A stretch of 64,000 bases of DNA from an uncultured Candidatus Saccharibacteria bacterium (GCA_964576615.1 CAZNUU010000002.1:27428-91427); one strand, 5' to 3'; shown: positions 54,238 through 59,559, counted from the stretch's first letter. Made by a program: numbers and translations. Notes: generated by a model from the sequence alone, not told the origin.

Positions 54238-54324
54238 CGGAAAGGGCGAGATTCGAACTCGCGATACCAGTTACGGTACGCCGGTTTTCGAAACCGGTGC
54301 TTTAAACCACTCAGCCACCTTTCC
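54238..54324 (-). tRNA. tRNA-Ser (anticodon CGA), type II long variable arm
   Basis: GGAAAGG/CCTTTCC acceptor, anticodon loop TTCGAAA, variable arm CGTACCGTAACTGGTAT, T-arm GCGAG-TTCGAAT-CTCGC. Confidence 0.8.
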
Positions 54325-54504
54325 AGGATTTTAATATAACACAATATGATATATTAGATTTCATTGCGGAATTGGTTTAGTGGCAGAATGCAGCCTTCCT
54401 GAGGTTTTGGTTAGATGGGTATCTAACCAAAAAAGCTTTTGAGATAAAATTGAGTTTAGCGAAAGTTTTATCCAAAAGGTATACTGCTCCTGTAAGGAGG
54501 AGAC

Positions 54505-54575
54505 GCGAGTGTGGTTTAGTGGTAGAACTTGTGCTTCCCAAGCACAGGGCGCGGGTTCGATTCCCGCCACTCGCA
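54505..54575 (+). tRNA. tRNA-Gly (anticodon CCC)
   Basis: GCGAGTG/CACTCGC acceptor, anticodon stem-loop TGTGC-TTCCCAA-GCACA, T-arm GCGGG-TTCGATT-CCCGC. Confidence 0.8.
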
Positions 54576-54627
54576 CAAGGGATTCGATTCTCGCATTCCG
54601 CACAAGAAATCTTGTTATAATTAAAAA

Positions 54628-56748: not shown

Positions 56749-57681
56749 TTACTTAATTCTACAGAGGTTTTTTAACTCCAAAATATCTGTAGCAGTCGGT
56801 CTTTCGTTAATACCATTGTTCAATTCATACATAATAGCCTTGGGATCTTGGTTATGGTCGAGCCCCAAAGCATGTCCCAGCTCGTGAGCTAAGACTCTCA
56901 CCAGTTTTGTCCTTGATTCAAACTGAAAAATATCAATTTCTTGTCCTGACGAGTCACTTTTGTATAACCCCTCCTCAAACTCACCGCCAAGGGAAGACCC
57001 GACTGTGTTGTATTGCTTAACATCAATATTGAGTGTCGTAGCAAGTTGATTTAATGTAACTGCCAATGCATTAATATTATCTACTTCCTGATTAAGCTGC
57101 GTCTGAATTTGGTTCAATTGGTTAGCCTCTTGGTTTATTGCATCTCTTTCCGCGCTTAGTTTGGCATACTCGTCTTTAGTTGCACCGCCCCGCCTGTTTA
57201 TTTGAGTGACTTCTTGTTCATAAGCTTGTTTCCTTTGGTTAAAATCTGCAACCTTTTGTTCAAAAAGGTTTTTGGCTGAATTATAGTTAGACATTTCGCT
57301 GTCATATTTTGCTTTTAGCTCATCGTACGAGCTCCTAGTATTTTTAACCACAATTCCCATTTGACCTAAAGTAACTGTAGCCTGCTGGCGATTGTCGTAA
57401 ATTAGATTTACCTTAAGTGAGCCATTCGGATTGTACTCAAAAAGATTTTTGTTAACGGGGGTTTCCCAGATTTTCTCCGCATCAGCTAGGGCCGAAAGGA
57501 AATCAGTCTTGGAAATTCCAAATCTAGTATCAAACGTACCCAAACTATACTCAATCGGACTTGTACATGGAAAAAATTTTGATTTCAAAATAACATAAGC
57601 ATTTTCAAGCTGTGGTTTAAAAATAACAACCACAACCAAGAGCACAGTTATAGCAAAAATATTTTTTGCAAAGTTAGACAT
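56749..57681 (-). CDS. Membrane-anchored metzincin zinc metalloprotease (matrixin-like) with coiled-coil stalk
   Basis: HELGHALGLDHNQDPKAIMY, i.e. HExxHxxGxxH plus Met-turn. N-terminal TM. Confidence 0.7.
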   Translation of the reverse strand: MSNFAKNIFAITVLLVVVVIFKPQLENAYVILKSKFFPCTSPIEYSLGTFDTRFGISKTDFLSALADAEKIWETPVNKNLFEYNPNGSLKVNLIYDNRQQATVTLGQMGIVVKNTRSSYDELKAKYDSEMSNYNSAKNLFEQKVADFNQRKQAYEQEVTQINRRGGATKDEYAKLSAERDAINQEANQLNQIQTQLNQEVDNINALAVTLNQLATTLNIDVKQYNTVGSSLGGEFEEGLYKSDSSGQEIDIFQFESRTKLVRVLAHELGHALGLDHNQDPKAIMYELNNGINERPTATDILELKNLCRIK

Positions 57682-57738: not shown

Positions 57739-58569
57739 TTATTTATTCCTCAAATTTTTATCTAGTGTATTACCTTTTTCATCTTTCCAAGCAGTCCAGC
57801 CGTTTATTGGACTCCCAGTAATTGTTGCAGCAGCTGCAGAAGGGCTCTTAAAAATTATATTCCTTAAAAATAAATACGAACTACCGTCATTGTTATCAAT
57901 CATTGTTCCATCTTCAAGATAACTCGCTCTCGCAGCCTTTGCCCATCCTGCAAAAGCAACTGTTTCTCTTTTTCTTGCCAATGAATGCTTCAATACATTT
58001 ATACTACCATCGTTTAATAACTGTGCTTTAGCATCAATACCTTCCCCTTTTAAGTAGTAGAATTTTTCGTCTGATATTGAGTCTTCGATACTATCAAAAA
58101 TATGATACCCGAAAGTTGAAAAGATTTTCTTTACACCATCAAGATATCTTTCGTTTTTTATGCGATCGAATTCGTTCTTAGCCTCTTCTCTTGGTTGTGT
58201 CGCATTTTTTACCACATATCTTTTAGCCTTTCTAGATAACTTCGCAGATATTGATTCAAGATAGTTTCTATCAGGAGGATTCAAAAAAATGAATGCCTGA
58301 TTCCAATAATCTTTTTCTGCATCATGAGACTCGAGTCGATTCGCACAATCACTAGATTCTCCGATATACACTAGCTGATTGCCTGTCTGTTTATCCTCAC
58401 CGAACAAGAAGTACAACCCTGAGGCTTGTATCTCCGGCCTCTCCTTCAGAGAGCCTATCTCAGTCCTTGGAACAATAATCGCTCTGCCGTCCCATCCAGT
58501 TAACTCAATAACTTTTATCCCATTAGGATCCCCTTTTGGAAAGATGAGCTGCATTACAAAAGACTCCAT
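57739..58569 (-). CDS. GIY-YIG nuclease domain protein with C-terminal DUF4357-like domain
   Basis: GLYFLFGE...VYIGES..R..H GIY-YIG motifs. C-terminal tail ...GSPINGWTAWKDEKGNTLD. Confidence 0.55.
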   Translation of the reverse strand: MESFVMQLIFPKGDPNGIKVIELTGWDGRAIIVPRTEIGSLKERPEIQASGLYFLFGEDKQTGNQLVYIGESSDCANRLESHDAEKDYWNQAFIFLNPPDRNYLESISAKLSRKAKRYVVKNATQPREEAKNEFDRIKNERYLDGVKKIFSTFGYHIFDSIEDSISDEKFYYLKGEGIDAKAQLLNDGSINVLKHSLARKRETVAFAGWAKAARASYLEDGTMIDNNDGSSYLFLRNIIFKSPSAAAATITGSPINGWTAWKDEKGNTLDKNLRNK

Positions 58570-58785
58570 CTCGCTATTAGATCACAGAATTAACCTCGCT
58601 GCAAAATATCTGACACATAATTTTTGGTTGCGGAAACGAAGGGATTCGAAACTTACAGTTTCAGTACCCCAATTGGATATAATATTTCGCTTTGCTTATA
58701 TTATATCTCAATCGGGCTTCGAATCCCCACAGAAGCTACGCCCATAGCTTCCTCCTAAAATTTAACTTCGTTAAATTTTTTCCTG

Positions 58786-58872
58786 CGGAAACGAAGGGAT
58801 TCGAACCCTTGAAGGAGTTGCCCCCTTACCCGCTTTCCAAGCGAGCGCACTAGACCTCTATGCGACGTTTCC
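58786..58872 (-). tRNA. tRNA-Ser (anticodon GGA), type II
   Basis: GGAAACG/CGTTTCC acceptor, anticodon loop TTGGAAA, long variable arm, T-arm AAGGG-TTCGAAT-CCCTT. Confidence 0.8.
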
Positions 58873-59559
58873 TTATTTCGTCTTATATCCTAACGCATAT
58901 TCATAAAGGACTGACCACAGCATACCCAAGCAGAAAGAAAAAACAAATTCCTCTATTGGTAAACCAAAGTATAAGTGTGGCCAAAAGTTCTTTAAGTTAT
59001 AGAAAGTAATTATATATTTTGGGAAGGCAAATAGAAATACCTGGAAAAGTAGAACGTAAACAAGCATGAACAAAAAGCCTCCAAGAAACATTTGTTTGAT
59101 GAGGTCCTTTCTGCAATAAGCCATAATTCCACAAATAAACATTATTACAGCTATGACCCCAAGTATTGGTTTTATCGGATAGACAAAAGCTGTACCGGCG
59201 TATATCAACATGCCACCCAAAAATGCGAAAAAGTGATGTTTTTTATCTCTCTTTATCTTAATCTCTTTTTTATTCTCTACGAATTCAAAAAGAACCGCCG
59301 CAATTCCACCTCCAAAAAACCAGACAATAAAATCATCCAGAGAAAACCCGACCTTATGAACTAAATCGAAAAGAAAAGGTGGATTCCAATAATATGGCAC
59401 CCAAACAAATTCAGAAGTCGCAGCAAGCACTGCGGCAATAACCCCACCAAACAACATTTCCTTTCGTAAATCCTTTCTGATAAGAAATATTGGAAACCAA
59501 ACGATAAAAAAGATTGGTGCACCAAAAACATAAGCATAACTAAACAAAATATCGTACAT
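58873..59559 (-). CDS. Polytopic membrane protein, possibly lycopene-cyclase-domain family
   Basis: 228 aa, ~7 TM. Two internal repeats with acidic motifs (SEFVWVPYYW, PIEEFVFSF). Tentative. Confidence 0.35.
   Translation of the reverse strand: MYDILFSYAYVFGAPIFFIVWFPIFLIRKDLRKEMLFGGVIAAVLAATSEFVWVPYYWNPPFLFDLVHKVGFSLDDFIVWFFGGGIAAVLFEFVENKKEIKIKRDKKHHFFAFLGGMLIYAGTAFVYPIKPILGVIAVIMFICGIMAYCRKDLIKQMFLGGFLFMLVYVLLFQVFLFAFPKYIITFYNLKNFWPHLYFGLPIEEFVFSFCLGMLWSVLYEYALGYKTK

Follow-up and report, generated by a model that had tools for sequence, protein, structure and literature searches.

A direct repeat of the tRNA-Ser(GGA) 3' end beside a PDC-S14 candidate nuclease gene in a Patescibacteria genome, most likely an ordinary genomic scar

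In a Patescibacteria genome the 3' end of a tRNA-Ser(GGA) gene is repeated exactly, and in the same orientation, a short distance downstream of the gene. The two copies have defined boundaries and enclose no gene and no integrase, the downstream fragment and the nuclease gene beyond it are specific to this lineage, and the tRNA gene was ancestrally adjacent to a metzincin gene. The feature is most likely an ordinary genomic scar, a new example of a tRNA att scar beside a candidate defence gene. We favour, at about an even chance, a reading in which the two copies are the decayed attL and attR sites of an element now reduced to 133 bp; the nuclease gene, a match to the PADLOC candidate family PDC-S14, would have reached this hotspot separately, probably earlier and possibly by tandem accretion. 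Positions refer to the window, the whole stretch of 64,000 nucleotides that was analysed. The features at the locus are the following.

58873-59559, minus strand: membrane-protein gene with a lycopene-cyclase domain, 0-1 nt gaps to NUDIX and tRNA
58786-58872, minus strand: tRNA-Ser(GGA), complete, CCA-less (ARAGORN; Rfam RF00005 tRNA, 53.5 bits)
58784-58805, minus strand: copy a, comprising T-loop, 3' strand of the T-stem, 3' strand of the acceptor stem, discriminator and 2 nt (CA)
58651-58783, minus strand: spacer, no gene
58629-58650, minus strand: copy b, orphan 3' fragment of tRNA-Ser(GGA), attR-like, displaced
58570-58628, minus strand: leader of the nuclease gene, 59 nt
57739-58569, minus strand: GIY-YIG nuclease gene with C-terminal DUF4357/RAMA, PDC-S14 candidate (Pfam, PADLOC)
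56749-57681, minus strand: metzincin (M10) gene, at the far edge of the lineage-specific insertion
54238-54324: tRNA-Ser(CGA) (ARAGORN, Rfam)

Read in the direction of the tRNA, the order is membrane-protein gene, tRNA-Ser(GGA) with copy a, 133-bp spacer, copy b, 59 nt, GIY-YIG/DUF4357 gene, 57 nt and metzincin gene. The stop codon of the membrane-protein gene abuts the 5' end of the tRNA. Since the minus strand encodes the nuclease, copy b lies between the tRNA and the gene start, 59 nt upstream of the start codon; an earlier placement of this copy immediately after the gene holds in plus-strand coordinates only. In the tRNA direction the repeat reads TTCGAATCCCTTCGTTTCCGCA, which corresponds to the last 20 nt of tRNA-Ser(GGA) plus the next 2 nt; the discriminator within it is G, followed by CA. 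The sequence-only reading had called a 22-nt direct repeat, and this was confirmed. All 22 nt are identical, the plus-strand 22-mer TGCGGAAACGAAGGGATTCGAA occurs exactly twice in the window (58629-58650 and 58784-58805), no further copy with up to 3 mismatches was found in the window, and 100 dinucleotide-preserving shuffles contained none. When the flanks are included, 32 nt align at 91% identity. The copies are 155 bp apart start-to-start and enclose 133 bp (58651-58783). The Logan assembly of SRR12313479 (L001) agrees at every base of the tRNA, spacer, fragment and gene start, and thereby speaks against an assembler artefact; the same reads may underlie the NCBI assembly.

The left boundary of the repeat is sharp. 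It falls where the T-loop begins (tRNA position 53/54), and at the other side identity ends just beyond the 3' end. No similarity to the tRNA body was found in the 65 nt upstream of copy b (23% identity in register, alignment score at random level). The sharp boundary of copy b argues against a decayed whole-gene duplicate, and a decayed full tandem duplicate of the tRNA was ruled out because the region upstream of copy b is unlike the tRNA body. Downstream of copies a and b the flanks are weakly similar (p about 0.005-0.03).

The spacer contains no gene and carries several small structural features.

58758-58778, in the spacer: AT hairpin
58732-58751, in the spacer: 7-bp GC hairpin
58718-58727, in the spacer: inverted 10-nt copy of the T-loop/T-stem
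58701-58756, in the spacer: good Shine-Dalgarno sequence and a 14-codon mini-ORF
58667-58716, in the spacer: 50-nt imperfect palindrome with perfect 10-bp arms

The T-arm-like fragment gggcttcgaatcccc that had been noticed between the copies does exist, at 58714-58728 rather than at 58697-58711. In its core (58718-58727), the 10 nt that open the repeat recur in inverted orientation without a mismatch (GGGATTCGAA and TTCGAATCCC). The arms of the palindrome are AT-only (GATATAATAT and ATATTATATC), each contains a TATAAT box, and the palindrome has no second instance in the window, which rules out a MITE family. The spacer as a whole is strongly structured (fold z-scores of -4.7 and -5.7 against shuffles) and its sequence is unique within the window. 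It matched no Rfam family, no phage record (blastn of 58570-58790) and nothing in IMG/VR (exact 31-nt piece), and no viral contig held an exact match to the 22-mer. The spacer, the flank of copy b and the region upstream of the metzincin gene had no significant homology to the intergenic DNA of L149, the closest relative. The 133-bp spacer is likely a remnant of integrated DNA.

We compared the locus with that of related contigs, in which the gene orders are as follows.

L133 (GCA_003173855.1): GroES-GroEL-LemA-TPM-GGDEF-NUDIX-NUDIX-tRNA-Ser(GGA)-29 nt-metzincin
L149 (GCA_964594005.1): TPM-GIY-YIG (88 aa)-GGDEF-NUDIX-NUDIX-tRNA-Ser(GGA)-94 nt-unrelated 193-aa ORF-126 nt-metzincin
L150-L155 (JGI and Logan): LemA-TPM-GGDEF-102 aa-tRNA-Ser(GGA)-NUDIX-metzincin-...-cyclophilin-RRM-DUF192-RNR
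P0138 contig (partly L132; ENA): NUDIX-metzincin-...-cyclophilin-...-RRM-DUF192-RNR, without the tRNA

L149 is closest, with NUDIX proteins 78-84% identical and the same tRNA acceptor stem as in the window. The backbone LemA-TPM-GGDEF-NUDIX-tRNA-Ser(GGA)-metzincin is kept in three Paceibacteria contigs (L133, L149 and L150), one of which (L150) also has cyclophilin-RRM-DUF192-RNR downstream of the metzincin gene. This shared backbone argues that the metzincin gene is an ancestral neighbour and not cargo; judged by gene order, tRNA-Ser(GGA), the metzincin gene and the cyclophilin-to-RNR block form an ancestral, syntenic set. The fragment, the spacer and the PDC-S14 gene are missing at the syntenic site of all three contigs, and no second copy of their own tRNA-Ser 3' end was found in the relatives, even with 5 mismatches allowed in 20. 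On this comparison the lineage-specific DNA amounts to about 1.05 kb, made up of the spacer, copy b and PDC-S14 and lying between the tRNA and the promoter region of the metzincin gene. The membrane-protein gene is also missing at this place in L149, L133 and L150, which makes it another gene specific to this lineage beside the tRNA. In this Paceibacteria lineage the tRNA-Ser(GGA)/metzincin junction is a small variable hotspot, for which at least three states are seen.

The two tRNA-Ser genes had been proposed to bound a decayed island at 54.3-58.8 kb, with the nuclease and metzincin genes among its cargo. Synteny with the relatives overturns this 4.5-kb island as regards its backbone. The metzincin gene stands with NUDIX and tRNA-Ser in the relatives, and the 3' ends of tRNA-Ser(GGA) and tRNA-Ser(CGA) are only 66% alike. 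The repeats do not bound the nuclease gene either; they enclose 133 bp, and the gene lies outside the pair. What survives of the expected presence/absence pattern is that the fragment and the nuclease gene are lacking in the relatives, whereas the metzincin gene and the backbone are present there.

Several further observations were made in this region. tRNA-Ser(GGA) begins 0-1 nt past the upstream stop codon in the window (58872/58873), in L149 (2657/2658) and in L133 (7884-7886), which suggests co-transcription with the upstream gene followed by RNase P processing. Given this spacing in the window and in the relatives, the exact fit of the extra membrane-protein gene is notable. At its tRNA-Ser/metzincin junction L149 encodes a 193-aa protein (2840-3421) with hydrophobic N- and C-terminal segments, for which there was no significant Pfam or PADLOC match (sub-threshold DUF2975, E=0.0096). 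Small stand-alone GIY-YIG genes (76-88 aa) occur at varied places in the syntenic LemA...RNR region (L149 820-1086, L132 336-566 and two copies in the P0138 contig), and look like an independently mobile gene. The metzincin has 1866 homologues in Paceibacteria/Parcubacteria, the best at 62% identity. A metagenome scan with the metzincin alignment was swamped by the generic VLAHELGH motif and yielded distant loci only (at most 49% identity), without tRNA-Ser. The ribonucleotide reductase of the window (49536-52271, minus strand) has a long low-complexity C-terminal extension rich in Pro, Val and Glu, followed by a terminal CxxC-like motif (…VCISCQ).

No integrase was found. Between the copies there is no ORF of at least 50 aa on the tRNA strand (two overlapping plus-strand ORFs, 58379-58747 and 58692-58853, were set aside). 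A motif scan detected no tyrosine- or serine-recombinase motif in any ORF of at least 80 aa of the 64-kb window. Pfam searches identified no integrase in eight ORFs around the locus or in ten ORFs of 288-419 aa elsewhere in the window, the latter ten being housekeeping genes. The segment from 54.6 to 58.6 kb is densely coded (a 139-aa ORF, YbaK-like, CARDB/PG-binding, metzincin and PDC-S14), and the search for integrase pseudogenes that an island might have left there returned neither an integrase nor a remnant. No third att-like copy was present near the PDC-S14 stop codon or the metzincin gene, where alignments were at random level. Composition gave no sign of an island; PDC-S14 and its neighbours lie inside the spread of the window. 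The GC of PDC-S14 is 0.377, its GC3 0.318 and its codon distance 0.199, unremarkable against a background of 0.406 (sd 0.031), 0.364 (sd 0.058) and 0.187 (sd 0.050), respectively.

The nuclease gene encodes a protein of 276 aa. Pfam assigns it DUF4357 (E=5.5e-17) with an overlapping RAMA-like match, and its GIY-YIG match is sub-threshold (18.4 bits against the Pfam cut-off of 22.6). The PADLOC model PDLC04925 (PDC-S14) matches over the full length (residues 5-271, E=8e-74), and the GIY-YIG catalytic positions Y53, Y68, G70, R78, E105 and N122 are invariant in an alignment of 24 homologues. The PADLOC match supports the nuclease as a candidate defence gene. The protein resembles PDC-S14 in its full-length match, its catalytic residues and its C-terminal DUF4357; it differs in that its host belongs to the Patescibacteria (CPR) and its closest homologue is 69% identical, and the family is itself a candidate. 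Fusions of DUF4357 to type IV restriction modules, GmrSD among them, also occur (PMC4619093). We infer that the PDC-S14 gene is a single-gene, restriction-like defence candidate. A literature search on the family returned only genome-survey mentions and no experimental report of defence, and no solved structure of a sequence relative was found in the PDB. Searches of Rfam, NCBIfam and PDB sequences with the nuclease or the spacer gave no match. In exact look-ups the 276-aa nuclease and the membrane protein had no entry, and a 271-aa form of the nuclease was found.

In the leader of the nuclease gene a weak sigma-70-like promoter may be read by eye (TTGCAG, 17 nt, TG-n-TCTAAT; 58576-58604), which a consensus scan did not call. 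A TGATCTAAT box is common to the leader and to a 68%-identical homologue in another contig (L127). This homologue adjoins tRNA-Glu(CTC), and a tRNA-Glu fragment was looked for in L127 and not found. The closest homologue (69%) lies between two GTPase genes of another CPR genome with no tRNA near. Remoter PDC-S14 members (about 28-33% identity) were present in 51 plasmid records and 3 phage records, and none was found in viral contigs. Among PDC-S14 loci similarity does not reach past the stop codon, and ahead of the start it is lost after about 20 nt, where the TGATCTAAT box lies; shared cassette borders are ruled out by this ending of similarity at the gene edges. The family is mobile, its homologues occurring in unrelated contexts and on plasmids and phages.

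Under the favoured reading, an element with a copy of the tRNA-Ser(GGA) 3' end would have integrated by site-specific recombination, probably of the tyrosine-integrase type, with crossover in the T-loop. The element's own 3'-end copy would now complete tRNA-Ser(GGA) as copy a, and the resident 3' end would have been pushed downstream to become copy b. Nearly the whole element, including any integrase, would later have been deleted, so that the structured 133-bp remnant stayed. PDC-S14 would not have been cargo of that integration, because the gene lies beyond copy b; it would have entered this tRNA-Ser(GGA)/metzincin junction on another occasion, probably before the integration. CIMEs are stretches of att-flanked DNA without recombination genes of their own that arise by decay of an integrated element; the known ones are kilobases long and have two functional att sites. 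At ICE and IME att sites, tandem accretion can leave older cargo distal to a newer scar. The locus resembles a CIME in being att-flanked and lacking recombination genes, and accretion would place older cargo beyond the newer scar; its remnant, however, is 133 bp and not kilobases.

Islander identifies tRNA-targeted integration by a 3' end fragment downstream of the tRNA gene in the same orientation, requires an integrase in an interval of 2-200 kb (shorter ones are rejected) and describes tandem arrays at tRNA genes (PMC4383910). The fragment has this configuration and begins in the T-loop, a recognised crossover subsite, and we therefore read the repeat as a decayed attL/attR pair. Like Islander islands, the locus has an intact tRNA and a cognate end fragment on the same replicon, in the right configuration and orientation, and the fragment is absent in relatives. 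Unlike them, it spans 133 bp (155 bp start-to-start), holds only the 14-codon mini-ORF and no integrase, and has its adjacent foreign gene outside the repeats. The repeat had been called a hallmark of attL/attR; the 3' fragment, its downstream position, its orientation and its start at the T-loop uphold this, whereas the mere 133 bp enclosed, with no integrase and no cargo, do not. Integrating elements commonly leave fragments of tRNA genes behind (van der Gulik et al. 2023, PMC9897764). Like those fragments, copy b is a partial, non-canonical tRNA copy beside a complete gene; the published ones flank elements of 9-23 kb, while this one flanks a 133-bp remnant.

Several points count against the scar reading. 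There is no integrase gene or pseudogene between the copies or in the 64-kb window, the spacer has no match in the phage or IMG/VR collections, and the 155-bp interval is far below any known integrative element (the Islander minimum is 2 kb; PMC4383910). The weak similarity of the flanks downstream of copies a and b is not predicted by the classical model, which also has no explanation for the exact fit of the membrane-protein gene between NUDIX and the tRNA. Because PDC-S14 lies beyond the repeat pair and a third att copy is lacking, only position connects the gene to the scar. A last point comes from a second tRNA locus of the window, where replacement of a whole gene leaves a like fragment running from the T-loop to the 3' end.

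54366-54606, plus strand: split resident tRNA-Gly(CCC) locus
54366-54399, plus strand: fragment A, 5' part of the old tRNA-Gly, with the break in or just after the anticodon loop
54505-54575, plus strand: complete tRNA-Gly(CCC) with a different acceptor stem
54580-54602, plus strand: fragment E, T-loop-to-3' end of the old tRNA-Gly

In the orthologous tRNA-Gly(CCC) of L133 (10033-10106), fragment A corresponds to positions 1 to about 35 and fragment E to the stretch from the T-loop to the 3' end. The acceptor strands of the two fragments are complementary at 7 of 7 positions (GCGGAAT/ATTCCGC), and between the fragments lie 105 nt and the complete tRNA-Gly(CCC). CAAG follows both tRNA-Gly 3' ends. 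At this locus a foreign isoacceptor copy seems to have replaced the resident gene in situ. A search with the 3' 22-mer of the new tRNA-Gly matched phage tRNA-Leu genes only, which are irrelevant.

Short-range copies of tRNA-Ser 3' ends also occur in other bacteria. A scan of genome contigs with the 20-mer TTCGAATCCCTTCGTTTCCG matched proteobacterial tRNA-Ser genes, and no relatives were among the matches listed. Among these matches were several unrelated bacteria in which the tRNA-Ser(GGA) 3' end recurs 50-200 nt beyond the gene; such copies are therefore not rare, and not all are due to intact islands. Two contigs (L050 924-995 and L060 218-290) have a CCA-less tRNA-Ser(GGA) with the acceptor stem of the window's gene and AATCCCTTCGTTTCCGCA 48 nt downstream, preceded by the complement GAAACGGAGG; paired, the two sequences make an acceptor/T-stem minihelix hairpin. 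In three alphaproteobacterial MAGs (L092 3141-3541, L074 3125-3400 and L114 1495-1791) a conserved unit of 160-200 nt stands behind tRNA-Ser(GGA); it contains a terminator hairpin and a GGTTCGAC box and ends in the last 19-20 nt of the tRNA including CCA. In L092 this unit is in tandem repeat. No Rfam family was found for these short-range 3'-end copies.

The main rival, which we hold to be possible although on balance doubtful, is replacement of part of the resident tRNA. A block imported from a related genome (membrane-protein gene, complete tRNA-Ser(GGA) and about 133 nt of downstream flank) would have replaced positions 1-53 of the resident gene. Copy b would be the resident T-loop-to-3' end, still joined to its old downstream DNA (59 nt, PDC-S14 and metzincin), and the 22-nt identity would reflect conservation between donor and recipient tRNA rather than an att core. 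The clear precedent is tRNA-Gly(CCC) in the same window (54366-54606), where the old 3' fragment also starts at the T-loop; at the Ser locus, however, the old 5' part has left no visible remnant. A single replacement would cover the lineage-specific features on both sides of the tRNA, including the membrane-protein gene with its 0-1 nt gaps, although it leaves the arrival of PDC-S14 unexplained and no donor-like block (membrane-protein gene beside tRNA-Ser) was found; the closest homologues of the membrane protein (40-50% identity) are in other contexts. The weak similarity of the two flanks is what orthologous intergenic DNA would give, but it is marginal. The proposal moreover specifies no mechanism, and an illegitimate junction formed at random would seldom coincide with the T-loop boundary. 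A wider version is that Paceibacteria have a recurrent process, directed to the T-loop, by which complete tRNA genes from outside take the place of resident ones and bring their neighbours with them; this would be in-situ xenologous replacement and not classical island integration, and the Ser scar and the membrane-protein gene would stem from the process that visibly replaced tRNA-Gly(CCC). We consider this unlikely; it is suggested by the fact that tRNA-Ser(GGA) and tRNA-Gly(CCC), within 4.5 kb of each other, each carry an old fragment starting at the T-loop.

Two other explanations bear on the arrangement next to the tRNA. Tandem accretion is a sub-case of the decayed attL/attR reading and, in its specific form, improbable. 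PDC-S14 would be the last cargo of an older tRNA-Ser(GGA) island that was shoved outward when a second element entered the regenerated tRNA; the then-functional 3' end would have become copy b, both elements would have decayed, and the oldest, distal att copy by the metzincin gene would have been lost. The order tRNA, remnant, fragment, PDC-S14 and ancestral neighbour has the look of a tandem array (Islander, PMC4383910), the relatives lack both PDC-S14 and the fragment, and another PDC-S14 homologue (L127) is also beside a tRNA. Yet that homologue has no tRNA-Glu fragment, PDC-S14 loci share no island borders, no third att copy lies between the PDC-S14 stop codon and the metzincin gene, and there is no integrase. 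It is very unlikely that the fragment and the structured spacer are instead a functional element acting in cis, whether as a tRNA-like or minihelix processing signal, as a terminator or insulator between tRNA and nuclease, or as a palindromic operator of PDC-S14. Spacer and fragment do fold far better than shuffles (z -4.7 and -5.7), and the inverted 10-nt copy is able to pair with the fragment, but the local minihelix fold is not above shuffles (z -1.3) and no Rfam family covers it. The recurrence of short-range tRNA-Ser(GGA) 3'-end copies in unrelated bacteria, with the clean minihelix of L050 and L060 and the unit kept in three alphaproteobacterial MAGs, speaks for a function. Against it, no relative of the lineage has the element, which leaves no conservation or covariation in its support, and PDC-S14 homologues lack such an upstream element and seem to have their own promoter box.

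To our knowledge, few integrative elements are known in the reduced genomes of Patescibacteria. The locus is a modest case of tRNA flanks serving as small integration and variable-gene hotspots in these genomes, and one such tRNA hotspot houses the single-gene, restriction-like defence candidate PDC-S14. For annotation, its lesson is that a direct repeat of a tRNA end alone does not delimit an island. The apparent replacement of tRNA-Gly(CCC) is more noteworthy than the Ser scar and, if such events are recurrent, would bear on the turnover of tRNA gene sets in streamlined genomes.
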